Shown one piece after another: positions 2,512-62,573 of a stretch of DNA of 64,000 nt. Source of the stretch: a virus. The number at the start of each line of letters is the position of its first letter. Position 1 is the stretch's first letter. The notes under the pieces were generated by a model. It searched no databases. It had not been told where the DNA came from and saw nothing but the letters and a program-made list of their open reading frames with translations. The stretch is taken from positions 32,001 through 96,000 of IMG/VR virus record IMGVR_UViG_3300048851_000098; one strand, written 5' to 3'. A program made the position numbers and the translations under genes.

Positions 2512-2632
2512 TTCCCGCTCCTGCGATAGAAGCGTTCACAGGAACATGGTCCGGACACTGGCGCGTGCTCACGTCGGGGGACACGCCATGACAGTGCGCT
2601 GAAGAGGGTCCTAGGGATAAAGCGCACTACCC

Positions 2633-2705
2633 GCCTCGGTCGTCCAGGGGACTAGGACGCTTGGTTGTCGACCAAGAAACCGGAGTTCGAATCTCCGTCG
2701 AGGCG
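2633..2705 (+). tRNA. trnD: tRNA-Asp(GTC)
   Basis: Cloverleaf; CTTGG-TTGTCGA-CCAAG; T-loop GTTCGAATC. Confidence 0.9.
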
Positions 2706-2707
2706 TT

Positions 2708-2887
2708 ATGAAGTCGGCTACACGTATGTTTGTTGAAGGAATGTCATATCGCGATGTAATGAGAATCGTCGGCATGCGCCAGCGTTACAGTCGCGAAGTG
2801 AATGATCCTGCTCTGCGGCCGGCTCCTCGTCGCAGACCCACGAGACGCCGCGACCGTCGTGCCCCTACAAAACCAATGCGCCGATGA
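2708..2887 (+). CDS. 59-aa basic hypothetical protein
   Basis: ATG 2708 to TGA 2887; ATGA overlap with the ORF at 2884. Confidence 0.45.
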   Translation: MKSATRMFVEGMSYRDVMRIVGMRQRYSREVNDPALRPAPRRRPTRRRDRRAPTKPMRR

Positions 2888-3123
2888 GATCACGAGCTGT
2901 ACGCCGTCATCATCGTTCCCGTCTGATCAAAAGACGCTCTCGCGATGCACTTGCTGCTTCGGTGATGCATTCTCCCGGAAAGCATCCTGAAGGCGCTCTT
3001 GCTGATAATCAGTATTGGCTCGGGTGTAATCTCCCGAACTGCGGCCTTTGCCATCCGTGGAAGCGATGGAGCCGAAGTGCTGATCGCCACAGAGCAAAGA
3101 TCAGCTTGCACGAGGAAATCTGA
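2884..3123 (+). CDS. hypothetical protein
   Basis: ATGA-coupled; CxxxxCxxCH cluster. Confidence 0.45.
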   Translation: MRSRAVRRHHRSRLIKRRSRDALAASVMHSPGKHPEGALADNQYWLGCNLPNCGLCHPWKRWSRSADRHRAKISLHEEI

Positions 3124-3215
3124 GCTGCTAGATTGCATCTCGTGAGCCGTTTCCGCTACATCCGCGCTTCGCGATCAGATCGATCGCGATATACCAGTCG
3201 ATTGCTGCGACTCCG

Positions 3216-3247
3216 CTAGCGCGCGGGTGAGATATCCCGCGCGCTAG
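3216..3247. repeat. perfect 12-bp inverted repeat
   Basis: CTAGCGCGCGGG-TGAGATAT-CCCGCGCGCTAG, 13 nt upstream of tRNA-Leu. Confidence 0.8.
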
Positions 3248-3260
3248 AACAGCAGTGCGC

Positions 3261-3348
3261 GTCGGGGTGGTGAAACATAGGCAGACACGCGGGCCTCAGA
3301 CGCCCGTGCCCCTAACAGGGCGTGAGGGTTCGAATCCCTCTCCCGACA
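3261..3348 (+). tRNA. trnL: tRNA-Leu(CAG)
   Basis: CGGGC-CTCAGAC-GCCCG; long variable arm. Confidence 0.92.
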
Positions 3349-3355
3349 CTTTCAT

Positions 3356-3442
3356 GGCGTCGTGGCGGAATTAGGTATACGCGCGCGGCTGAGTACCGCG
3401 TGGGAGTCAAATCCCTTGGAGGTTCAAGTCCTCTCGACGCTA
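3356..3442 (+). tRNA. trnL: tRNA-Leu(GAG)
   Basis: CGCGG-CTGAGTA-CCGCG; long variable arm. Confidence 0.9.
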
Positions 3443-3459
3443 CCTATAACAAAATAGTT

Positions 3460-3537
3460 GTGGCGATTGTTGAAACTTCAACTGCTCACGTAAGGGGCGA
3501 GCCGAACGTGGGACAGGGAGCTTCAAACAATCGCCAC
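3460..3537 (+). ncRNA. long irregular hairpin RNA, unassigned
   Basis: GTGGCGATTGTT/AACAATCGCCAC 12-bp base plus two further inner helices. Confidence 0.5.
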
Positions 3538-3557
3538 GAGACGAGTGTAGCAGACAC

Positions 3558-3641
3558 GCGCGAGTGGCGGAACGGCAGACGCGCTCGACTCAAAATCGAG
3601 TGTTCCTTGTGAACGTGTGGGTTCGACTCCCACCTTGCGCA
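3558..3641 (+). tRNA. trnL: tRNA-Leu(CAA)
   Basis: CTCGA-CTCAAAA-TCGAG; long variable arm. Confidence 0.92.
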
Positions 3642-3655
3642 TTTAGGTAAAACTT

Positions 3656-3742
3656 GGAGGCTCGCAAGGTTGGCGTGCTTATCGGTCTTGAAAACCGTGA
3701 TGGCTCTAACGAGTCGTGGGGGTTCGATCCCCTCAGCCTCCG
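3656..3742 (+). tRNA. trnS: tRNA-Ser(TGA)
   Basis: CGGT-CTTGAAA-ACCG; long variable arm; G73. Confidence 0.9.
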
Positions 3743-3754
3743 TAGTTCCAACAT

Positions 3755-3836
3755 GCCGGGAAGGCCCCAATGGTGGGGCACCTGACTGTAAATCAGGCGT
3801 CTCTGACAACGGCAGGTTCGATCCCTGCTCCCGGCA
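3755..3836 (+). tRNA. trnY: tRNA-Tyr(GTA)
   Basis: CCTGA-CTGTAAA-TCAGG. Confidence 0.92.
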
Positions 3837-3864
3837 CTAAGAAAACATAAAAACCCCTGCAAAT

Positions 3865-3952
3865 GGACGGTATCCGAGTGGTTAGGGGCGCGACTGCTAA
3901 TCGCGTAAGACAGAGCGAATCTGTCCGCTGGGTTCGATTCCCAGGCCGTCCG
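3865..3952 (+). tRNA. trnS: tRNA-Ser(GCT)
   Basis: CGCGA-CTGCTAA-TCGCG; long variable arm. Confidence 0.92.
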
Positions 3953-4071
3953 TACTAATCGTTCTGATCGTTCTTCTCTTGACTCTTTGTAGAGGAGTGG
4001 TACTGTTGTGTGCAAGTCGCCTCGTAATGAGGCTTTCCCACACACCACGATGACCTTAGGAGGCCATCAGC

Positions 4072-4596
4072 ATGACCGCTCTTCTCGAAGAGATGACGAC
4101 CAGAATCGACAGTCGTATGGAGGAGCTTCAGCCGCTCGTCCAGGAGTACGGCGAGTTGGCCGAGGCCAAGGCTCGCCTGACCGGCAGAGAGGTCAACGTC
4201 TCCCTGTCTCCCGCGCGTCGTCGCGGCCGCCCGAGCGCCAAGGACGGATCGGCTCCCCGCGCCGGCAAGCGCACCGACATGGTGATCGCTTACCTGCGCG
4301 AGCATCCGGACGGTGCCACGGTCAATCAGATCGTGGAGGGCACGGGCACGTCGCTCAACTACACCTACGCGATCGTCCGCGATCTCGTGGACGCGGAGCC
4401 GCCCGTCGCCAAGCGCGCGGAGGGCAGAGTGGTCCTGATCGACCCCAACTACCGTTCGCCGAGCGAGGACGAGAACAAGGGCGACGAGGGGAACAGCGAT
4501 GGCGACTCGACGCAGGGCGAGCAGAAGCCCGACGAGACGCCGGCCCCCGACAAGGCCAAGCCCGCCGCGAGAGCGAGAGCGACCAGCAGAAAGTGA
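4072..4596 (+). CDS. putative nucleoid-associated DNA-binding protein (coiled coil, AT-hook-like RRRGRP, winged HTH)
   Basis: N-terminal heptads; RRRGRP; ATVNQIVEGTGTSLNYTYAIVRDL HTH-like segment; strong RBS AGGAGG; upstream TTGACT-N16-TACTGT. Confidence 0.7.
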   Translation: MTALLEEMTTRIDSRMEELQPLVQEYGELAEAKARLTGREVNVSLSPARRRGRPSAKDGSAPRAGKRTDMVIAYLREHPDGATVNQIVEGTGTSLNYTYAIVRDLVDAEPPVAKRAEGRVVLIDPNYRSPSEDENKGDEGNSDGDSTQGEQKPDETPAPDKAKPAARARATSRK

Positions 4597-4601
4597 TCTC
4601 C

Positions 4602-4648
4602 TAGCGGCTCGCTTGTAATCACTCAGGCGAGCCGCTAAGATCCTTTTT
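4602..4648 (+). terminator. terminator-like hairpin overlapping a promoter
   Basis: TAGCGGCTCGC/GCGAGCCGCTA stem, T-run downstream; TTGTAA(4613)-N17-TAAGAT(4636) lies within it. Confidence 0.55.
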
Positions 4649-4659
4649 GGAACAAAGAA

Positions 4660-4732
4660 GGGTCGTTAGCTCAGTCGGTAGAGCAGGAGACTCTTAATCT
4701 CAAGGCCGTAGGTTCGATCCCTACACGACCCA
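4660..4732 (+). tRNA. trnK: tRNA-Lys(CTT)
   Basis: GAGA-CTCTTAA-TCTC; canonical D and T arms. Confidence 0.93.
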
Positions 4733-4754
4733 TACTGGTTATATCGTTGATATG

Positions 4755-4979
4755 GTCAGAACTACCCCCGAAAGGTAAGAGCGGGCCACGTCCGGGTACC
4801 CCGAGGCCGGACAACAATTTCATAGTGTCCCGAGAGCGGGTAGCTGACGGTAGGAGAAATCCGTACTAAGGTCCGACTCCGGATATCTGTACGTGACAGA
4901 GAAATTGCCTTCGGGAACCGATACACGGAATGATCGGATCGCGGACAAATGTGGGGGTGCGTCCACTATAAAAACGCAC
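4755..4979 (+). ncRNA. multi-branched structured RNA ending in an H-type pseudoknot, unassigned
   Basis: GTCAG(AA)CTACCC 4755/GGGTAGCTGAC 4838; GTCCGG/CCGGAC; pseudoknot GTGG-GG-GTGCGT-CCAC-TATAAAA-ACGCAC 4951-4979. Confidence 0.6.
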
Positions 4980-4983
4980 ACTC

Positions 4984-5059
4984 GCCCCGTTGGTCTAGTT
5001 AGGCTTAGGACGCCTGCCTCTCACGCAGGAGATCACCGGTTCAAATCCGGTACGGGGTT
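4984..5059 (+). tRNA. trnE: tRNA-Glu(CTC)
   Basis: CCTGC-CTCTCAC-GCAGG. Confidence 0.92.
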
Positions 5060-5119
5060 TAGGGAATTGGAAAGCCAACTAATCACAAAGCGCGAGCGTT
5101 TCTAGAGCGACTGCGGCGT

Positions 5120-5311
5120 GCGTCATTAGAGTAGGAGCTATCGATTCCCGATCTCGGAATCGGATTCCTCTTACCTTGCCTTTCCTCTAATGGGTCTGGC
5201 TGGGAAGATCCCCACGCAGCCCTCTGGCACCGTTCCAATGGGATTCGGCATTGCCATTCCCGGAGCAACGCTTTGAGGTCGGTCGGCATACGACTAGAGG
5301 AATCCGATTCC
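5120..5311 (+). ncRNA. candidate structured RNA or paired operator region
   Basis: Perfect 16-bp inverted repeat 5156-5171/5296-5311, crossed by CATTAGAG 5124/CTCTAATG 5185; inner hairpins. Confidence 0.5.
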
Positions 5312-5323
5312 ATCTTCTGCGAA

Positions 5324-5380
5324 GTGGCGTTTGGCCGGACTTGGTAGCCGGTGTAAACGGGTTCGATTCCTGGCGTCACG
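5324..5380 (+). ncRNA. 57-nt D-armless tRNA-like RNA with a TGG-centred loop
   Basis: Acceptor GTGGCGT/GCGTCAC; GCCGG-ACTTGGTAG-CCGGT; T-loop GTTCGATTC; only 3 nt where the D arm should be. Confidence 0.55.
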
Positions 5381-5533
5381 CTTATGAAATTCAGACCAAT
5401 CGACGGCATGGCTGTAGAAGTTGATGATGAGGAAATCATTGTCAACTATTCGGGCGAAGGTACCGATTTGCTCTTGCATCAGGCACATCTGGCCGATAAG
5501 ATCATCGACAGATGCGTGAGAGCGCATGATTCT

Positions 5534-5605
5534 GCCCGGTAAGCTTTGTTGGCGAAGCGCTGGTTTTGTAATCCAGTGAGCAGGGTTCGATTCCTTGACC
5601 GGGCG
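5534..5605 (+). tRNA. trnT: tRNA-Thr(TGT)
   Basis: Acceptor GCCCGGT/ACCGGGC; loop TTTGTAA. Confidence 0.88.
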
Positions 5606-5610
5606 CTTGC

Positions 5611-5985
5611 ATGGACAACCCGCGTCGAGATGAACTTGGCAATTACATCTTTCTGCCGCAAACCCGGTTCGATCCCGAACCTTGGGCGAGAGTTCTGCGC
5701 CGCGATCCATGCTCATATTGCGACGGCGCGGGCGGCACTGTAGATCACATCGTGCCGCTGGCTCATGGCGGCGAGAAGGCCGTTTCTGTCAACGGCACCG
5801 GCGCCTGCTCGACCTGTAACAGTCTGAGCCACCAGAAGTCCGACACGCCCCTCCTCCAATTCCTCCTCAAGCGAGCACAGCGGAGAGACGCCTACGAGCA
5901 CTACGTCAGATCCTCTCCGCAGATCACTCACAGATTCTTCACGGAGGAGCAGTTGGAACTTCTACGTCGAGTTGCAGAAAGCTAG
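5611..5985 (+). CDS. HNH endonuclease
   Basis: CSYC...TVDHIVPLAHGG...NGTGACSTCN. Confidence 0.9.
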   Translation: MDNPRRDELGNYIFLPQTRFDPEPWARVLRRDPCSYCDGAGGTVDHIVPLAHGGEKAVSVNGTGACSTCNSLSHQKSDTPLLQFLLKRAQRRDAYEHYVRSSPQITHRFFTEEQLELLRRVAES

Positions 5986-6010
5986 CGAATACTGTAGTAT
6001 TGACCCTCTT

Positions 6011-6083
6011 GTGCCTATAGCTCAATTGGTAGAGCAGTGGACTTCTAATCCAAAGGTTGAGGGTTCGAGCCCCTCTAGGCATG
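6011..6083 (+). tRNA. trnR: tRNA-Arg(TCT)
   Basis: TGGA-CTTCTAA-TCCA; canonical D and T arms. Confidence 0.93.
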
Positions 6084-6086
6084 TAT

Positions 6087-6473
6087 ATGAAGGAATATAG
6101 AGATTTCATGTGCTCTTGTAAGCCTGACGGCAAAGAGCGATGTGAAGACACTCTAAGAAGAGTTTGCAGACTTCTTAGAGTTGAACCAACAAAGCTTCTC
6201 ACTGGTGTTGTTTACAACATGCAGCATCTTGAGAATTGGAGAGATAGACCGGGAACTGTTTGGATTTGCGGTAATATCGAATCTATCTATTCTGATATGT
6301 GGGCTGCGATCAATGCAGAGATCCAGTATCACGATGAGGAAGAAGATGAATTCAGACTTATTGCAAGAATTCGAGTTCAATGTGATCTGATTGAACATGG
6401 CGTTGCTCGTGTTTATGAGCTGGCGCTTAGAGCAGCAGAAGATTTCGAAGCGTCTATAGCTCAGTCTGGTTAG
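6087..6473 (+). CDS. hypothetical protein
   Basis: ORF between tRNA-Arg and tRNA-Ile; stop lies inside tRNA-Ile. Confidence 0.55.
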   Translation: MKEYRDFMCSCKPDGKERCEDTLRRVCRLLRVEPTKLLTGVVYNMQHLENWRDRPGTVWICGNIESIYSDMWAAINAEIQYHDEEEDEFRLIARIRVQCDLIEHGVARVYELALRAAEDFEASIAQSG

Positions 6474-6524
6474 AGCGTCCGTCTGATAAGCGGAAGGCCC
6501 GAGGTTCAAATCCTTGTAGGCGCA
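6450..6524 (+). tRNA. trnI: tRNA-Ile(GAT)
   Basis: TCCGT-CTGATAA-GCGGA. Confidence 0.93.
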
Positions 6525-6527
6525 CCT

Positions 6528-6737
6528 ATGGCATTGCATAAAGAGGATTTCGACGGACAGATCTGCCACTGCGGCGATGATGGATGCGATATGAGCATTA
6601 TGTATCTGCATTCGAGTTGTCATCTTGGTGCGCCTACGGAGGCTTCGTATTCCGGAGGCGAGATTACAATCAGATGTTCTGTGTGTAAAACCTTTATCGC
6701 TTCGATAGCTGTCGCATCAAATGCAACAACGAATTAG
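6528..6737 (+). CDS. small putative Zn-binding protein
   Basis: CHC...C, YLHSSCH and CSVC clusters. Confidence 0.55.
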   Translation: MALHKEDFDGQICHCGDDGCDMSIMYLHSSCHLGAPTEASYSGGEITIRCSVCKTFIASIAVASNATTN

Positions 6738-7011
6738 TCACAAGCTCACTGCTCACCACTTCCGTCATAATCGTAAAGGCGGAACGATTATTGGTGTCTG
6801 TAGCTGCGGATATCGCCATGGCATCTTTCGCAAGATGCGTCGTACACAGCTCACTCGCGGAATCGTCTGTTTCTTCCGTGGTGGGCATCGATGGGGCGAG
6901 GAAGATACCTGGGAGGTCGGCCCGGCCGGCTTCAGAGACGGCGAAGGTGAAGCTTCTGGCCGTTTCAAGCAATGCGATTTCTGCTATAAGATCGAAGATA
7001 CGCACCTGTAG
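6721..7011 (+). CDS. Cys/His-rich hypothetical protein
   Basis: CSCG...CFFRGGHRW...CDFC; overlaps neighbours. Confidence 0.5.
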   Translation: MQQRISHKLTAHHFRHNRKGGTIIGVCSCGYRHGIFRKMRRTQLTRGIVCFFRGGHRWGEEDTWEVGPAGFRDGEGEASGRFKQCDFCYKIEDTHL

Positions 7012-7073
7012 TGTTAGTGGTAACACGTCAGCCTTCCAAGCTGAAGTGCTCGGTTCGAATCCGAGTAGGTGCT
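7002..7073 (+). tRNA. trnG: tRNA-Gly(TCC)
   Basis: TCAGC-CTTCCAA-GCTGA; U73. Confidence 0.93.
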
Positions 7074-7115
7074 TTTGTTCGCTAGAGGGCGAACGAAACG
7101 AACCGAACAAAAGCC

Positions 7116-7144
7116 TTGACACGCCCCAAAACCTCCTCTAAGAT
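7116..7144 (+). promoter_or_regulatory. sigma70/SigA promoter
   Basis: TTGACA-N17-TAAGAT. Confidence 0.8.
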
Positions 7145-7220
7145 GCAAAGCATGATGCAGCCGCCCACCACTCAGAATTGCCGCCGATGGCGATTCCATC
7201 GACCGTGCCGAAATATGCAT

Positions 7221-7291
7221 GGGCGAGTGGTGCAACGGCAGCACAGCGGCTTCCAACCCCGCTGATCCGGGTTCGATTCCTGGCTCGCCCG
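7221..7291 (+). tRNA. trnW: tRNA-Trp(CCA)
   Basis: Counting from the D arm gives stem GCGGC/CCCGC (C31-C39 mismatch) and loop TT-CCA-AC; G73. Confidence 0.82.
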
Positions 7292-7292
7292 C

Positions 7293-7490
7293 TTCTGGTC
7301 CTCGCCGGCCACAAGGTGAACGTGCGCACTGCGACGGCAGAGCGCGGCCCCCACAGCGTTCACTGGTCGTTTGGACGCCAGAGCGCCTGTCTGAAGCAGA
7401 GGATAAGATAGGCGGCTAGCCGGGTGGTCTTCGCACTCCGCGACCGACAGACGCCACCATACGCCTCTCCAAGACGGAGATAGAGAGGAC
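7293..7490 (+). ncRNA. structured spacer with two copies of an ACGCC + NAAG..GATA hairpin motif
   Basis: GTGAACG/CGTTCAC; CGCCTGTCT-GAAGCAGAGGATA-AGATAGGCG 7384-7414; CCTCTC-CAAGACGGAGATA-GAGAGG 7464-7488. Confidence 0.5.
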
Positions 7491-7495
7491 TTCGA

Positions 7496-7568
7496 TGCGC
7501 GATAGTTCAATTGGCAGAACGCTCGACTGTTAATCGAGTAGTTGAAGGTTCAAATCCTTCTCGCGCAG
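7496..7568 (+). tRNA. trnN: tRNA-Asn(GTT)
   Basis: CTCGA-CTGTTAA-TCGAG; G73. Confidence 0.93.
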
Positions 7569-7569
7569 T

Positions 7570-7752
7570 ATGCGAATAGCAGCTCGTGTAGCACATACAA
7601 GAAACGGACCTGTTGTTACTATCGTTGATGATGTTCCTAACGATTGTGGTCCTGGCGAATATGTGATTCTGGAAGAACGCGAAGGAAAATACACAGAAGT
7701 CGGAGAATTTGGTAAAGATATAGATACTCGCACTGATAGCTCAGTCCGGTAG
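7570..7752 (+). CDS. small hypothetical protein
   Basis: Fills the Asn-Phe spacer; stop lies inside tRNA-Phe. Confidence 0.45.
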   Translation: MRIAARVAHTRNGPVVTIVDDVPNDCGPGEYVILEEREGKYTEVGEFGKDIDTRTDSSVR

Positions 7753-7804
7753 TAGCGCCTGTCTGAAAAGCAGGAGGTCCCTGGTTCGATTCCAGGTCAG
7801 TGCA
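7730..7804 (+). tRNA. trnF: tRNA-Phe(GAA)
   Basis: CCTGT-CTGAAAA-GCAGG. Confidence 0.92.
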
Positions 7805-7805
7805 T

Positions 7806-7880
7806 GGGTCCGTAGCATAATTGGAACAATGCCCCTGGTTGTGGTCCAGGTCGATGCGGATTCGAATTCCGCCGGACCCC
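7806..7880 (+). tRNA. trnH: tRNA-His(GTG)
   Basis: CCTGG-TTGTGGT-CCAGG; C73. Confidence 0.9.
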
Positions 7881-8014
7881 TATGAAAATGATCGGGAGAT
7901 GTGTCGGATTGGGATACTGCTGGTGTCCCGAGTGCCGTCCTCGCGGCGATAGCAGAAAATCAGAAAGACGACGGATCAAGCGGCGCGAGCGTCAGAAATG
8001 GAAGAGAATCGTGA

Positions 8015-8218
8015 ATGGCGCGCAAATCTAGAGATCTGAGAGTAAGAGTAGGAGACGTTCTGACTGAGCATCAAGTCAGTCAGATTGAAAAACTAGAAGC
8101 GGAATGCGTAGCTCTTGCCAAGGAAGCAAATCGTTGGCGAGAGGAAGCGCATCGATTGAAGACTAGACGTAGCGCGGTGCGTGAATGGCTAGCGGGTCGC
8201 CTGCAAAGCGAACGATAG
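8015..8218 (+). CDS. small coiled-coil hypothetical protein
   Basis: Heptad pattern; 3' end overlaps tRNA-Cys. Confidence 0.4.
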   Translation: MARKSRDLRVRVGDVLTEHQVSQIEKLEAECVALAKEANRWREEAHRLKTRRSAVREWLAGRLQSER

Positions 8219-8241
8219 GGGTTCGATTCCCCTCCGCGCTT
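8171..8241 (+). tRNA. trnC: tRNA-Cys(GCA)
   Basis: TCGC-CTGCAAA-GCGA; U73. Confidence 0.88.
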
Positions 8242-8259
8242 CTTTGCTAAACTGCACGC

Positions 8260-8463
8260 ATGAATCTAAGAATTATTCGCAAAGGTACAATTTGGAAGTA
8301 TAAAAACAGAACGGGAGCTGCTACTATTGTAAAAGTCATCTTTGTCCATACCATCGCAAGTGTCACATGGGTTGCCTTTATGCCGATTCACCGCGATAGA
8401 CTTGGCGGGGTAATGACAAGAGAAGACTTTTGTGATACATTCGAGTGGATGTCGAGCAAATAA
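8260..8463 (+). CDS. small hypothetical protein
   Basis: Fills the Cys-Val spacer exactly. Confidence 0.45.
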   Translation: MNLRIIRKGTIWKYKNRTGAATIVKVIFVHTIASVTWVAFMPIHRDRLGGVMTREDFCDTFEWMSSK

Positions 8464-8536
8464 GCCCGGATAACTCAGCGGTCAGAGTGCGGTCCTTACA
8501 AGACTGTGGTCCTTGGTTCGAATCCAAGTCTGGGCA
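8464..8536 (+). tRNA. trnV: tRNA-Val(TAC)
   Basis: CGGTC-CTTACAA-GACTG. Confidence 0.93.
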
Positions 8537-8539
8537 CTT

Positions 8540-8746
8540 ATGAGTCTTTTTGTATGTGAAGAATGTAGATGTATCGAGAACACTGCAACCAGTAAATACT
8601 GGTTGCGTAGCGAGATCGACGGAAAAAGACTCTGTTCGCTGTGTGACCCTCGAATTGGAAAATGGCATAACATCTTTCCGCGTGAGACAATTTCCGAATT
8701 TGAACAACGAATCGGAAGACCAGTAGATCGCAGCAACTATTTGTAA
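8540..8746 (+). CDS. small Zn-finger-like protein
   Basis: FVCEECRCIENTA...LCSLCDP...WH. Confidence 0.6.
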   Translation: MSLFVCEECRCIENTATSKYWLRSEIDGKRLCSLCDPRIGKWHNIFPRETISEFEQRIGRPVDRSNYL

Positions 8747-8752
8747 CAACCA

Positions 8753-8827
8753 CGGGATATAGCGCAGCCTGGCTAGCGCGCTCGCTTTGGGAGCGAGAGG
8801 TCGAAGGTTCGAATCCTTCTATCCCGA
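8753..8827 (+). tRNA. trnP: tRNA-Pro(TGG)
   Basis: CTCGC-TTTGGGA-GCGAG. Confidence 0.94.
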
Positions 8828-8828
8828 C

Positions 8829-8899
8829 TGCGGAGTAGTCTAACGGCAAGACGCACGGTTCTGGCCCGTGAGTAGAGGGTTCGAGTCCTTCCTCCGCAT
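8829..8899 (+). tRNA. trnQ: tRNA-Gln(CTG)
   Basis: CACGG-TTCTGGC-CCGTG. Confidence 0.92.
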
Positions 8900-9002
8900 T
8901 ATGCCGCTACATGATCTTATTGCTCTAGGAATTCTTATTGCTGTGATACTGCTAATTGGATTGCTTTTGTTGATTTTCTTCGAACTGAAAGACTGACCCC
9001 TT

Positions 9003-9074
9003 GGGGGTCTAGCTCGAAGGTCGAGCAGGGAGCTTTTAACTCTCCGGTGATGGGTTCGATTCCCTCGGCCCCCA
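9003..9074 (+). tRNA. trnK: tRNA-Lys(TTT)
   Basis: GGGAG-CTTTTAA-CTCTC. Confidence 0.9.
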
Positions 9075-9076
9075 CT

Positions 9077-9268
9077 ATGAAAACTGAAACGTTTTATTGT
9101 GATCGGTGTAAAATAGAAGTTCATCCGGAGCGTCTGCATAGGATCACACATGATTGGTATCCTGCTGCGAATGTCTCTGAGACTTATGATTTTTGCGTAA
9201 ATTGTATTACTGATATCGTAAATGTAATCAATCGCGCAAGTGATACAAATCAGTTTCGATTTCGATGA
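9077..9268 (+). CDS. small CxxC...CxxC protein
   Basis: YCDRC...DFCVNC. Confidence 0.55.
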   Translation: MKTETFYCDRCKIEVHPERLHRITHDWYPAANVSETYDFCVNCITDIVNVINRASDTNQFRFR

Positions 9269-9339
9269 TGGCGGATCGTCTAATGGTAAGACGCAAGCCT
9301 TTGGAGCTTGCTATCGGGGTTCGAATCCCTGTCCGCCAG
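9269..9339 (+). tRNA. trnQ: tRNA-Gln(TTG)
   Basis: CAAGC-CTTTGGA-GCTTG. Confidence 0.93.
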
Positions 9340-9448
9340 TGGCAATGACTAGACAGCGTACGAGTTGAACAGGGAAGCTGGCACGTCAGGCGTGTAGAGG
9401 TTGAGTCGGTACCAGGCTCGCCGTCCCTTGCGGCCCTTGTCATTGCCA
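9340..9448 (+). ncRNA. branched RNA closed by a perfect 10-bp helix, unassigned
   Basis: TGGCAATGAC/GTCATTGCCA; inner AGGGA/TCCCT and CACG-TCAGG-CGTG. Confidence 0.5.
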
Positions 9449-9468
9449 ATTCGTTTACCGCAGCACCT

Positions 9469-9542
9469 ACCCCGGTAGCTCAACTGGACAGAGCGCTGGT
9501 CTACGGAACCAGAGGTTTGGGGTTCGAATCCCTAGCGGGGTG
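9469..9542 (+). tRNA. trnR: tRNA-Arg(ACG)
   Basis: CTGGT-CTACGGA-ACCAG. Confidence 0.92.
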
Positions 9543-9552
9543 CTGTAACAAT

Positions 9553-9646
9553 GGGCCGGTAGCCAAGGTTAGGACAGGCCACTCCCCGGCAGTGGTAGCT
9601 GTCGGAAGAGAAGGAGTGAAAGCGGGTTCGAATCCCGTCCGGTCCA
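9553..9646 (+). ncRNA. tRNA-like RNA with Ala identity (G3-U70, A73) and the anticodon loop replaced by a 27-nt hairpin module
   Basis: Acceptor GGGCCGG/CCGGTCC-A; D arm GCC/GGC; stem ACTCC/GGAGT enclosing CCGGCAG-TGGTAG-CTGTCGG-AAGAGAA; T arm GCGGG-TTCGAAT-CCCGT. Confidence 0.75.
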
Positions 9647-9647
9647 T

Positions 9648-9677
9648 TTGACACAGACTATGATTCTTGTGTATAGT
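9648..9677 (+). promoter_or_regulatory. sigma70/SigA promoter with extended -10
   Basis: TTGACA-N18-TATAGT preceded by TGTG. Confidence 0.75.
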
Positions 9678-9791
9678 AGCTCTACCTTCGCAAAAGGTGC
9701 GTTACGAGTAGGTTCTGGAAATTTCTGCAAACCATCAACTGGTTGAGAAACGCCTAAAGTTGCATCGAAGTCAGAATAGATGCAGCTCCGC

Positions 9792-9862
9792 TGCGGATTG
9801 GTGGATTGGTACCACGCGAGGCTCATAACCTTGAGGGACGGGTTCGATTCCCGTATCCGCTA
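9792..9862 (+). tRNA. trnM: tRNA-Met(CAT); unpaired 1:72 suggests initiator-like, Ile2 not excluded
   Basis: CGAGG-CTCATAA-CCTTG; U1-U72 mismatch. Confidence 0.85.
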
Positions 9863-9940
9863 TGTGCGATAGCTGGCCGCGCATCTCTGAGTGTGCCTTT
9901 GGCATTTATCAGACAAGGGTCTTCGACTCCCAGCTAACTA

Positions 9941-10012
9941 GGGCGATTGGTGTAATCGGGAACACACTAGCTTTGCAAGCTAGAATTGGGGGTTCGACTC
10001 CCCCATTGTCCA
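9941..10012 (+). tRNA. trnA: tRNA-Ala(TGC)
   Basis: CTAGC-TTTGCAA-GCTAG; G3-U70; A73. Confidence 0.92.
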
Positions 10013-10107
10013 TGCCGAGCCGGATGTGATGGATTATCTTGGTAAATGGTGCGACCCACCTACCGAGTTCGAGTCTCGGGTATCCACCGCAATTGATTTG
10101 CTCGGCA
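10013..10107 (+). ncRNA. Y RNA (distal copy with a T-arm only)
   Basis: TGCCGAGC/GCTCGGCA ends; CGAGCCGGA-N9-TTATCT...ATTTGCTCG motif as in the three Ro60-adjacent RNAs; CCGAG-TTCGAGT-CTCGG. Confidence 0.75.
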
Positions 10108-10133
10108 ATCTAAATCCACAAAGGAGGCGAATC

Positions 10134-10169
10134 ATGCTGAAGCGCCTGCTTGTCCTTAGGACAAGCTAG
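10134..10169 (+). promoter_or_regulatory. putative leader peptide MLKRLLVLRTS
   Basis: Strong RBS AAGGAGG 10121-10127; ORF contains hairpin GCTTGTCC/GGACAAGC. Confidence 0.45.
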
Positions 10170-10238
10170 CCTCAGTCGAAGGGACGGATGAACCGTCTCT
10201 AGTGCCGGCTGGGGCGCCCCGAAAGGGGGTGAAACAGC

Positions 10239-10415
10239 ATGGCTAGTGGAACGCCCCATACGGCGAAGTCCACCACTACGAAGACGAACAAAAAACGTCT
10301 TCGCAAGGGCGGTCGTAACGAGCGAAAGTACGCGAGATATCGCGCTCGCGTCGGTAAGCCGAACGGCCCCGGTATGCCCGGTAATAAGTCGGGCAAGAAC
10401 AAGATCCATTCATAG
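10239..10415 (+). CDS. 58-aa highly basic protein (not in the ORF track)
   Basis: MASGTPHTAKSTTTKTNKKRLRKGGRNERKYARYRARVGKPNGPGMPGNKSGKNKIHS; RBS GGGGGTG; terminator follows. Confidence 0.6.
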   Translation: MASGTPHTAKSTTTKTNKKRLRKGGRNERKYARYRARVGKPNGPGMPGNKSGKNKIHS

Positions 10416-47021: not shown

Positions 47022-48704
47022 TTAGATGCTCTCCTGAATGAACTGCGCCATGATCTGTGGTGCGCCAGAGTCGAACCCGACGACATCCAACATGCCTGGA
47101 TCTCTTGGGTTAGCGATGCTGTATTCGGTAGCTGTGTAGGCAGCAGCAATCAGCTTTGCTCTGATACCGCTTTCCTTGCGATAGAACTCCAAAGCTTGCG
47201 ATGCGTGAATCCCACCATTCCACGACTCGTTATCGGTGTGGATCTCGAAAACGTCGTATTCCTTGCCGTTCTCACGGGCGTACATGATTGGCAGTGCGCA
47301 ATCTGTAGCACCCATAAACGGAGACATCGCTCGCATCGCGCGATCAACATCATCGAGACGCTGACGGGGGCTGAGTGCCATCGGTGTCAAGCCAGGGTAG
47401 ATCTCTCTACCGGAGTTCCGACTGCGGTAATAACTGTCCCCTCCGCTGGTAAACGCAACCACGTCGTAGGGATCGCCCGTCTTCATGCTGGCGAGCGACA
47501 TCGCACCGGCCGCCTCTGCGGCCACGAACCCTTCGATGCCGGCGACGTACCTCGGGTACGCGCCCCACATCGAACCGGAGATATCGAGCGCAATCAGACG
47601 ACGTGCGCCAGTCGGCTCCAAATTGTCGAACGCGAGATAGAACGCCTCATCGAGGGCGTCGAGAATCTGAGGCACAGGTGTCCACGTCTGCCCGCGCCGG
47701 CCCACCCCCGCCGCATAGGTCTTTGAGGCCAGCAGCACGTTGGCAGGGTGGATTCGCGCAGCGCTGATTACCTCCGCGTCAGTGAGCGTTCTGCGGATGA
47801 TGTCCGTCTCTCTGCTTGTGCCAGTGATCACACCATCGCGTGTCATGTTGGCGAGATTGCGAATCATCGCCGTCATGGGCATTTGTGCATTCAGAAGTGC
47901 AGACCAGACCTCGGGCTGATTTCTGTGCTCAGTCAGAATCGCCTCGCGTGGCAGACGGAATCTTTCGATCAGTCTGGCAGTAGCTCTCGGCGTTCTCGCT
48001 CTGAGAGCCTTGCCGGCAGCCTGCACGATCTCCGGGAGATCTCTTTTCTTTCCCTTGTATCTGTTGGTCGCCCACTGGAAGAGCATCTTCATCTCTTCCA
48101 TATCTTCGTGAACAACTCTCTCGCGATCCTCTGGATTTGGATGTGCGAGACGCAACAGATCCTCGTGCGACCATCCGTCGCGCTGTGGATACTTCACGAG
48201 CTGGTAGGCGAGCTTCGGAATTGGCTTCTTCAGATACCAATTCGCCACGGCGTTTCTCATACCACGGCCCCAGCCGGCGAACTGCTCGCGGAACGTAACG
48301 AATTGGAACAAATGTGTGCCGATACGGCAGACATTGTTCACGTTCTCGAATGCGTACTGGCGTGTTGCGTCATCACCAAGCGCAGAGGCCATGGCGAGAG
48401 CGAACACGGCTTGATCATTCTTCGGTGCGCGAGCGTCCATCGAGATTTCAACGATGGTGTCCACGGTTCTGATTCCGTCAAGTTTGCAACACTCGATTAC
48501 GCACTCGGCGTTTTCACGAGTCAGCTTGCGCTCACCCGTGTAGTAGGTCCCGCCCTCGGAACCGAGAATGAGGAATCGCCGCAGACGAGCAAAGGGATCG
48601 ATCTCATAGACGAAACCACCAGCGTTGTTCTCGACCTGATCTTGACCAGGGATCGGTTCGCTCTGTGGTGTTTCTTTTGCTCCGTAATTTCTCAGATACG
48701 ACAT
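47022..48704 (-). CDS. rsr: Ro60/Rsr TROVE-domain RNA-binding protein with a vWA domain
   Basis: NNAGGFVY, RLRRFLILGSEGGTYY, VCRIGTHLF, YQLVKY.QRDGWSH.DLLRLAHP, MPMTAMIRNL, MIDAS ALDISGSM, TDC, TDNE, MLDVVGFD. Confidence 0.97.
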   Translation of the reverse strand: MSYLRNYGAKETPQSEPIPGQDQVENNAGGFVYEIDPFARLRRFLILGSEGGTYYTGERKLTRENAECVIECCKLDGIRTVDTIVEISMDARAPKNDQAVFALAMASALGDDATRQYAFENVNNVCRIGTHLFQFVTFREQFAGWGRGMRNAVANWYLKKPIPKLAYQLVKYPQRDGWSHEDLLRLAHPNPEDRERVVHEDMEEMKMLFQWATNRYKGKKRDLPEIVQAAGKALRARTPRATARLIERFRLPREAILTEHRNQPEVWSALLNAQMPMTAMIRNLANMTRDGVITGTSRETDIIRRTLTDAEVISAARIHPANVLLASKTYAAGVGRRGQTWTPVPQILDALDEAFYLAFDNLEPTGARRLIALDISGSMWGAYPRYVAGIEGFVAAEAAGAMSLASMKTGDPYDVVAFTSGGDSYYRSRNSGREIYPGLTPMALSPRQRLDDVDRAMRAMSPFMGATDCALPIMYARENGKEYDVFEIHTDNESWNGGIHASQALEFYRKESGIRAKLIAAAYTATEYSIANPRDPGMLDVVGFDSGAPQIMAQFIQESI

Positions 48705-48888: not shown

Positions 48889-49025
48889 AGGCTACGAGCA
48901 AATTGTTTGGATTCGATATAGGCGCTCTAACCAGGCTGAGCTACACGCCTTTTGAGCGTGACGGGATTCGAACCCGCGACCTCCCTCTTATGCGGAGATA
49001 ATCGATTCCATCCGGCTCGTAGCCT
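48889..49025 (-). ncRNA. YrlA-type Y RNA with a permuted tRNA-like domain
   Basis: AGGCTACGAGC/GCTCGTAGCCT ends; T arm (GGGTTCGAATCCC), closed acceptor (CACGC/GCGTG), then D arm (TAGCTCAGCCTGGTTAGAGC); adjacent to Ro60. Confidence 0.9.
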
Positions 49026-49033
49026 TCAAGAGA

Positions 49034-49106
49034 TCTCGCGAACAAATAGTTGGTGATGGGTATTGTCTGTTCGATAGAGATAACCCAAAACCTCCGGCTC
49101 GCGAGA
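49034..49106 (-). ncRNA. minimal 73-nt Y RNA without a tRNA module
   Basis: TCTCGCGAGC/GTTCGCGAGA ends; CGAGCCGGA-N9-TTATCT...ATTTGTTCG. Confidence 0.8.
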
Positions 49107-49128: not shown

Positions 49129-49270
49129 CTGGTCGAACAAATTAGTTGAAAAGCGAGATTTTTTACCACTGCTCTACCAATTGAGCTACCGACGCTCTTC
49201 GAGCCTCGGGCAGGAATCGAACCTGCAACCTTTGGTCCCTGAGATAACGCTTATCGTCCGGCTCGACCAG
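49129..49270 (-). ncRNA. second YrlA-type Y RNA
   Basis: CTGGTCGAGC/GTTCGACCAG ends; T arm GCAGG-TTCGATT-CCTGC, closed acceptor, D arm TAGCTCAATTGGTAGAGC. Confidence 0.9.
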
Positions 49271-62193: not shown

Positions 62194-62276
62194 TACTTGG
62201 CTGTCCCGCCTTTGTGTTGGTTTACACAACTACCGATGCCCTCACCGGTAATGAGAGTTACGGGAATCGAACCCGT

Positions 62277-62573
62277 CTACACCATCGCTTCCGCAAGCTG
62301 CACTCTCAGCAAATCTGTTGCAGCAGACATTCTCGTCAGTTCTTCGGGATCACCTTCGAAATTCGCCTCTTCAGTGCGGAGAATCCCAATGTATTCGATG
62401 CTCTGATCGATTACCTCTTGTCTCTCGCCTGAAATGGTGATCGCATCTCTGATCGTTACCGAATCGACTGTGAATCCCCCACCTTCAATCAGAGTTCTGA
62501 CATACCAACCAAGAAAGGTTCCGCCTCGATTGATATTGAAATGCAGATTGTATTCAGCGCCAAGATCCACCAT
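62277..62573 (-). CDS. hypothetical protein
   Basis: Co-oriented and overlapping its neighbour. Confidence 0.5.
   Translation of the reverse strand: MVDLGAEYNLHFNINRGGTFLGWYVRTLIEGGGFTVDSVTIRDAITISGERQEVIDQSIEYIGILRTEEANFEGDPEELTRMSAATDLLRVQLAEAMV

Follow-up and report, generated by a model that had tools for sequence, protein, structure and literature searches.

Lak megaphages carry tRNA genes with conserved 'enigmatic' introns that lie just after the anticodon (Devoto et al. 2019, PMC6784885). The insert of the Lak tRNA-Tyr gene measures 93 nt (Table S6). One of the Lak inserts resembles a tRNA itself, and identical copies are shared between cohorts (PMC6784885). Mycobacteriophage DS6A, in turn, encodes a TLD-only tmRNA (Hudson et al. 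2014, PMC4131195). The TLD has neither a D stem nor an anticodon stem and acts through SmpB. In eukaryal and archaeal tRNAs, the introns pair with the anticodon.

Here we describe a real, unusual tRNA gene of a soil-type phage that touches on all three systems. Like the Lak introns, it has a non-group-I insert directly after the anticodon of a bacterial-virus tRNA gene, and such genes are missed or mis-called by bacterial-mode tRNA finders. Unlike the Lak inserts, that of the present element is only 20 nt long, pairs directly with the anticodon and is accompanied by C33, and the element is a singleton. Alanine acceptor identity without anticodon decoding is common to the DS6A TLD, synthetic alanine minihelices and the element, which in contrast to the TLD is a complete cloverleaf. 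With archaeal and eukaryal intron-containing pre-tRNAs it shares an insert at or near position 37/38 that pairs with the anticodon and lengthens the anticodon arm, whereas it differs from pre-tRNAs of the bulge-helix-bulge (BHB) type in having no paired 3-nt bulges, a bacterial host and no accompanying endonuclease gene. We would class the element with the insert-bearing phage tRNA genes glimpsed in the Lak phages, as a very short variant that masks its anticodon.

Should the RNA prove stable and charged, it would be a natural example of an aminoacyl-tRNA that a small hairpin of its own keeps out of decoding, and the anticodon-less alanine acceptors of phages would gain a member with a full cloverleaf. 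If the insert is removed, an undescribed tRNA-splicing route would have to operate in bacteria or their viruses, and the simple 94-nt substrate would make a convenient splicing assay. Because standard tools mis-call the gene (ARAGORN as tRNA-Arg(CCG) and as a false permuted tmRNA), genes of this kind are mis-annotated in phage genomes.

The source phage and its tRNA array

The window, that is the whole stretch of DNA analysed (64,000 nt), corresponds to bases 32001-96000 of a 124-kb IMG/VR virus record estimated to be 85% complete; coordinates given below without a locus name are those of the window. The phage encodes DnaB, a primase, a DnaE-type polymerase, a UvsX-like recombinase, a terminase and a portal protein. 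As its polymerase is at most 34% identical to those of the nearest isolate phages (Streptomyces, Rhodococcus), it belongs to an uncultured lineage. The element lies near the end of a large tRNA array on the plus strand:

2632-10012, plus strand: tRNA array, 26 ARAGORN tRNAs besides the element, to which Rfam adds 3755-3836
3755-3836, plus strand: class II tRNA-Tyr(GTA), loop CTGTAAA, 47.7 bits with Rfam, missed by ARAGORN
9469-9543, plus strand: tRNA-Arg(ACG), found by ARAGORN and Rfam, 9 nt upstream of the element
9553-9646, plus strand: the element, a tRNA-Ala(GGC)-type cloverleaf with a 27-nt anticodon 'loop', 94 nt, CCA not encoded
9648-9677, plus strand: sigma-70-like promoter TTGACA-N18-TATAGT, 11 of 12 consensus matches, beginning 2 nt past A73 of the element
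9792-9862, plus strand: tRNA-Met(CAT) with a U1-U72 mismatch atop the acceptor stem
9941-10012, plus strand: ordinary tRNA-Ala(TGC), found by ARAGORN and Rfam (64.6 bits), 295 nt downstream of the element

The cluster comprises 27 tRNA genes, and with tRNA-Tyr(GTA) completing the set all 20 amino acids are covered even when the element is left out. The ordinary tRNA-Ala(TGC) had been placed about 300 nt away by the initial annotation, in agreement with the distance found here. The element is probably co-transcribed with tRNA-Arg(ACG), and given the promoter at 9648-9677 the array seems to be transcribed as more than one unit. The U1-U72 mismatch of tRNA-Met(CAT) recalls bacterial initiator tRNA; the base of its anticodon stem has two G-C pairs only.

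Anatomy and fold of the element

The element consists of the following parts, all on the plus strand:

9553-9559: acceptor stem 5' strand GGGCCGG, G3 at 9555, seven of seven bases paired with 9639-9645
9562-9579: D arm, 3-bp stem GCC/GGC and a 12-nt loop with GG
9580-9585: anticodon stem 5' strand CACTCC, pair probabilities of 0.99-1.0 with 9613-9618
9586-9605: hairpin CCGGCAGT-GGTA-GCTGTCGG, 8 bp including two G-U pairs, pair probabilities of 0.97-1.0
9592-9611: inferred 20-nt insert, with a one-base ambiguity of register (alternatively 9591-9610)
9606-9612: purine bulge AAGAGAA on the 3' side, single-stranded in the minimum free energy (MFE) and centroid folds
9613-9618: anticodon stem 3' strand GGAGTG, forming a 6-bp stem with 9580-9585
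9622-9638: T arm GCGGG-TTCGAAT-CCCGT, from the MFE fold and the Rfam alignment
9639-9646: acceptor stem 3' strand CCGGTCC (U70 at 9642) and discriminator A73 at 9646

The Rfam tRNA model (RF00005) aligned with the element end to end at 35.0 bits, above its gathering score of 29 although the lowest in the array, and placed a 26-nt insertion in the anticodon loop. The MFE fold is a cloverleaf of -43.5 kcal/mol (z = -3.69), equalled in stability by none of 200 shuffled sequences. None of the 29 base pairs is broken; the bona fide neighbours tRNA-Arg(ACG) and tRNA-Met have one mismatch each. Score and fold thus bear out the canonical acceptor, D and T arms with G3-U70 and A73 that had been noticed initially. 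The inner hairpin and the AAGAGAA bulge within the anticodon stem were likewise recovered, the hairpin having 8 bp, two of them G-U, rather than the 7 bp first counted. No second copy of the hairpin was present in the window with up to three mismatches allowed, and there was no close paralog of the element within the tRNA array. A 3-bp D stem of the same style also occurs in a tRNA-His of a related phage.

The alanine identity set, read directly, is complete (G1-C72, G2-C71, the G3-U70 wobble and A73). AlaRS disregards the anticodon and reads the acceptor stem only, and to our knowledge non-alanine tRNAs avoid the combination of G3-U70 and A73. Ordinary bacterial and archaeal tRNA-Ala(GGC) genes have the same four features together with GGC at positions 34-36; the element differs from them in its 27-nt instead of 7-nt loop, its paired anticodon, C33, the 3-bp D stem and a 4-nt variable loop ending in A. 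The acceptor and T arm of archaeal tRNA-Ala genes (L120, L129) are letter-identical to those of the element, and tRNA-Ala(GGC) of a Terriglobia genome matches it at six of seven acceptor and 15 of 17 T-arm positions, the 25-nt stretch of T arm and acceptor 3' strand together with GGGCCGG being a common tRNA-Ala solution.

A buried GGC anticodon and a 20-nt insert

Instead of a 7-nt anticodon loop with U33, which is near-universal in tRNAs, and an exposed anticodon, the element has 27 loop nucleotides that open with CC-GGC-AG and close with AA, the last two A of AAGAGAA being the would-be positions 37/38. The triplet GGC at 9588-9590 occupies positions 34-36, where a cognate NGC triplet has a chance of 4/64, and is base-paired in the hairpin with a probability of about 1. 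The first six bases of the hairpin are loop positions 32-37 (C32, C33, G34, G35, C36 and A37), and TGTCGG in the insert is their complement; position 33, a C, pairs with G. Full complementarity to positions 32-37 arose in 1.2-1.8% of trials with random 20-mers. The hairpin arms deviate from a perfect DNA palindrome twice, and both deviations give G-U on the transcribed strand.

Removal of the 20 nt in silico left a sequence of about 74-76 nt, which ARAGORN called as tRNA-Ala(ggc) with the 7-nt loop CCGGCAA. This result, together with G3-U70 and A73, shows that the body of the element is that of a tRNA-Ala(GGC), interrupted by 20 extra nucleotides directly behind the anticodon. Since the insert complements positions 32-37, the anticodon is present but buried: it is masked rather than absent, and the initial description of a tRNA mimic with no anticodon has to be corrected in this respect. 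Its corollary, that the unprocessed RNA is unable to present an anticodon, agrees with the near-certain pairing of GGC.

Can the insert be removed?

The insert lies at position 36/37 or 37/38, which we take to be the canonical site of tRNA introns. In a BHB, each splice site lies in a 3-nt bulge and a 4-bp helix separates the two bulges. Neither the fold nor inspection by hand revealed such a motif in the element, where the 8-bp helix is capped by a GGUA loop and accompanied by a single 7-nt bulge. The 5' junction falls inside the 8-bp helix with no 5' bulge, the 3' junction falls in the 7-nt bulge, and by hand positions 32-35 were found unable to pair with the four bases preceding the 3' junction. 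We know of no protein tRNA-splicing endonuclease in bacteria, and in the phage record, estimated to be 85% complete, no tRNA-splicing endonuclease (PF01974), RtcB (PF01139) or Rnl-type ligase (PF09414) was found. An intron of the BHB type was rejected on account of the missing bulges and of the endonuclease and ligase genes lacking in that record.

Group I introns require a U-G pair where the 5' exon is cut and a ribozyme core of at least some 200 nt, and 20 nt is far too short for any ribozyme. A group I intron was therefore also rejected, the insert having no Rfam intron match and the 5' exon loop no U. ARAGORN in intron mode reported nothing on the native sequence. FemAB, AlaRS and a CCA-adding enzyme were likewise not found in the phage record. 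The roles first proposed for the RNA, as an alanine donor for non-ribosomal transfer, a modulator of the ribosome or of the stringent response, or bait for anticodon nucleases, consequently find no backing there, as it is without FemAB, AlaRS, RtcB, Rnl and splicing endonuclease.

Search for relatives of the element

No ortholog of the element, with or without the insert, was found in any relative reached. Exact and gapped pattern scans of IMG/VR viral contigs yielded none, and blastn against isolate phages matched the neighbouring tRNA-Arg only. A covariance model of the element (R1) detected ordinary tRNAs only in 33 related loci (the best a tRNA-His with 41 bits). Run over the entire records of four related viruses and over two actinophage tRNA arrays, it matched either ordinary tRNAs or nothing, and it found no homolog of the element in the phage's own record. 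DnaB has many metagenomic homologs on contigs of 105-127 kb; the closest relatives encode P0002 (69% identity, 71 kb), P0009, P0010, P0014, P0015 and P0051. A search for viral-contig relatives with the single DnaB protein found none, and a DnaB-alignment search of viral and metagenome contigs reached short or distant loci only; three loci reached with the alignment (L009, L010 and L011) are tRNA arrays upstream of dnaB, and those of L009 and L011 are without the element. These ortholog searches covered the reachable relatives. Within the accessible data the element is thus a singleton, and because all ortholog searches were negative it has no support from conservation or covariation.

Long-insert tRNA bodies in other viral contigs

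Viral contigs were also searched with a structural pattern (GGGC...TAG, a long gap, a T loop and GTCCA, giving G3-U70) and with a control ending in GCCCA (G3-C70). As raw counts, 10 long-insert tRNA bodies had G3-U70 and 11 had G3-C70. Long inserts in the anticodon region are hence not alanine-specific, at least by raw counts, and as G3-C70 bodies are as frequent as those with G3-U70 the alanine identity of the element may be incidental: the identity on which the initial annotation was built is fully present, yet it need not be the point of the element. Four of the G3-C70 controls proved to be canonical loops (CU-NNN...AA) split directly after the anticodon by hairpin inserts of 18-32 nt:

L146:13801-13892: split tRNA, tRNA-Sup(UUA) upon removal of the insert
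L149:6509-6609: split tRNA, tRNA Arg(CCU) upon removal of the insert
L152:6345-6450, minus strand: split tRNA, tRNA Met(CAU) upon removal of the insert
L156:8759-8851, minus strand: split tRNA, tRNA Leu(CAA) upon removal of the insert

These four share with the element an insert 3' of the anticodon whose deletion restores a canonical tRNA, but unlike the element they keep U33. Three cloverleaves with alanine identity (L137, L140, L142) have structured modules in place of their anticodon loops and no recognisable anticodon.

Ro60 and Y RNAs of the phage

The phage also encodes Ro60 and several Y-RNA-like RNAs:

47022-48704, minus strand: Ro60/TROVE gene, Pfam TROVE domain (8.8e-48) and Ro60 vWA domain
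48889-49022, 49035-49106 and 49147-49253, minus strand: three Y-RNA-like genes before the Ro60 gene
10012-10112, plus strand: fourth Y-RNA-like RNA, directly after tRNA-Ala(TGC) and 37 kb from the Ro60 gene

Two of the Ro60-adjacent RNAs are YrlA-like (42.9 and 41.7 bits, under the Rfam threshold of 69 bits, E about 1e-7), and one is similar to ceN72-3, a family of Y homologs from nematodes (E 0.0017). The RNA at 10012-10112 has CGAGCCGGATG...ATTATCT and ...ATTTGCTCG in common with them and forms a T-arm-like hairpin (MFE -35.1 kcal/mol, z -2.1; no Rfam report), whereas 10016-10092 alone gave no significant structure (z -0.19); it probably helped to trigger the false tmRNA call of ARAGORN. Tyrosine tRNA of class II, the near-consensus sigma-70 promoter and the YrlA-type Y RNAs point to a bacterial host, as do DnaB/DnaE and Ro60 with YrlA.

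The element and the YrlA-type Y RNAs (RF02553) have in common that they mimic tRNA in a phage that also encodes Ro60, and the T arm of the YrlA-like RNA at 48889-49022 is identical to that of the element over 18 nt. YrlA is, in contrast, a circular permutation in which the acceptor hairpin is closed and the ends of the RNA lie in the Ro-binding stem; the acceptor ends of the element are open.

Competing explanations

With a probability of roughly 0.4, we favour the explanation that the insert is retained and that selection maintains the RNA as a tRNA look-alike that putatively accepts alanine but would not decode. The element would be transcribed together with the tRNA array, the transcript would be trimmed by RNase P and 3' processing and receive CCA from a host enzyme, and AlaRS, reading the acceptor stem only, would charge the product. 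In the predicted fold GGC, C33 and A37 are locked in the 8-bp hairpin stacked on the 6-bp anticodon stem with its 7-nt purine bulge, and this elongated closed arm would be barred from the decoding site; the simplest guess for a role would be that of a sink or decoy for tRNA-binding factors. A maintained mimic is suggested by the near-certain modelled fold, the 29 intact pairs of 29, the anticodon-complementary insert and the changes that preserve pairing as G-U, and by analogy the alanine-identity cloverleaves L137, L140 and L142 may be counted in its favour. C33 adds stability to the hairpin and would be detrimental to decoding, an argument against a spliced decoder. Against maintenance stand the absence of an ortholog from the relatives searched and the other tRNAs (26) that already cover the 20 amino acids; moreover, the phage encodes no partner protein, and alanine identity may be incidental. 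The same singleton status and redundancy, the latter including tRNA-Ala(TGC), would fit a pseudogene, a possible but somewhat doubtful explanation in which tRNA-Ala(GGC) was inactivated by a recent gain of 20 nt, for example through local inverted duplication by template switching, the product being functionless and the intact stems a sign of recency. C33 would be tolerable in a dead gene, the Rfam score is the lowest in the array, and the hairpin arm approximates an inverted copy of the adjacent loop bases, as expected from templated duplication. A dead gene is harder to reconcile with 29 intact pairs where working neighbours have mismatches, with the anticodon complementarity of the insert, or with two palindrome changes that both keep pairing as G-U, for which we estimate a chance of about 1/36 under neutrality. 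Nor would random damage be expected to strike the very site at which four unrelated phage tRNAs and the Lak tRNAs (PMC6784885) are split.

The 20 nt might also be a mini-intron. It would be excised from the precursor and the flanking halves joined in a way not yet described, perhaps by an endonuclease of host or phage together with host RtcB, to give a decoding tRNA-Ala(GGC). L146, L149, L152 and L156 are split at the same place and favour an intron-like reading over a maintained mimic; the conserved Lak 'enigmatic' introns at this site (PMC6784885) count for a mini-intron as well. Removal in silico restores a canonical tRNA-Ala(GGC), and there would be work for it, GCU and GCC making up 332 of 671 alanine codons (49%) in 16 phage genes. 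The position 36/37 or 37/38 fits the canonical intron site, and pairing between insert and anticodon is likewise a feature of eukaryal and archaeal tRNA introns. We nevertheless consider splicing unlikely: there is no BHB, bacteria have no known protein tRNA-splicing endonuclease, tRNA_int_endo, RtcB and Rnl were not found in the phage record estimated at 85% completeness, the insert is too short for a ribozyme and has no Rfam intron match, ARAGORN in intron mode found nothing, and the spliced tRNA would carry C33 where the four clear split tRNAs keep U33. An extension by analogy, that short post-anticodon inserts in bacterial-virus tRNAs might form a wider class spliced by an undescribed protein-based bacterial route, appears improbable to a similar degree; in an alternative form of the mini-intron idea, the insert would act as a switch that masks the tRNA until it is processed. 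Two further explanations, prompted largely by ARAGORN, carry very little weight. Its call at 9552-9647 makes the element a tRNA-Arg(CCG) with C33 and a 26-nt variable region, and the phage does use CGG (51 of 664 arginine codons), but this fold was rejected as 19 kcal/mol costlier (-24.8 versus -43.5 kcal/mol) and in conflict with the D stem: its anticodon stem (CCACU/AGUGG) has a pair probability of 0.000, it takes a D-stem base and leaves two D pairs, its 'variable arm' has no stem, and G3-U70 would make it a substrate of AlaRS, so that we regard it as the least probable of all. Scarcely more credible is a tmRNA piece, an inhibitor of trans-translation resembling a TLD-only tmRNA, or a Y RNA bound by Ro60, even though alanine identity is common to tmRNA, the TLD-only tmRNA of DS6A is a precedent (PMC4131195), the phage has Ro60 and Y RNAs, one of them 370 nt downstream of the element, and ARAGORN called a permuted tmRNA at 9553-10204. 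The permuted tmRNA was rejected because it spans two real tRNAs, tRNA-Met and tRNA-Ala, has an implausible tag and lacks an Rfam tmRNA match; a search of 9400-10300 gave neither a tmRNA nor a YrlA match at 9553-9646 with E <= 1. In contrast to the TLD, the element further possesses an anticodon stem and a complete D arm; it ends at the acceptor stem, unlike the permuted YrlA, and is without the CGAGCCGGAUG / AUUUGCUCG Ro-stem motif of the phage's four Y-like RNAs, and the analogy with tmRNA drawn initially is on these grounds abandoned. All readings other than a mimic, a pseudogene or a mini-intron are, even taken together, highly improbable.

Other RNAs with an alanine-type acceptor

Extra tRNA genes scoring 46-57 bits, whose acceptor and T arm are exactly those of the element (G3-U70, A73), were encountered in Acidobacteriota/Terriglobia (L108, L112, L114, L117, L119, L122, L126, L127 and L130) and at G005:C1:2484026-2484097. 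Their loops read CCGUCAA or CUGUCAC (GUC, Asp) and CCGCGAA or CUGCGAC (GCG, Arg), mostly with C33. In one complete acidobacterial genome the extra gene occurs alongside a normal tRNA-Asp(GUC) and three normal tRNA-Ala genes and, unlike those tRNA-Asp and tRNA-Ala genes, has no encoded CCA. Judged by its sequence, the extra tRNA might mistranslate by delivering alanine in place of aspartate, or it might be a tRNA-like RNA with no part in decoding; no conserved neighbour genes were found for the acidobacterial alanine-acceptor genes. Two gammaproteobacterial MAGs (L109:2034-2104 and L131:4298-4368, both minus strand) contain tRNA genes of 57-65 bits with the loop CUCUCAA (CUC, Glu), the alanine acceptor and T arm of the element, and the inverted repeat CCTCCGTG / CACGGAGG at their flanks.

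Shorter elements of 68-69 nt without a D arm, which may be TLD-only-like alanine acceptors, were seen in viral contigs (L003-L008), Demequina (L111), Occultella (L115) and a Pseudomonadales MAG (L123). They have the GGGCCGG acceptor, T arm and A73 of the element around variable cores of about 36-37 nt, and one type is identical across five viral contigs from different samples. On an 86.8-kb viral contig, a tRNA with anticodon UUA, of the ochre (UAA) suppressor type (L007:3500-3580, minus strand), is followed by about 330 nt of structured non-coding sequence with a 69-nt alanine-acceptor element at its end. The window itself contains, at 62252-62307 on the minus strand, a small acceptor-plus-T-arm hairpin (GGGTTCGATTCCC, closing stem of 6-7 bp, z -2.6) without alanine identity, which matched model R1 weakly (15 bits) and inside which the stop codon of a minus-strand ORF falls.
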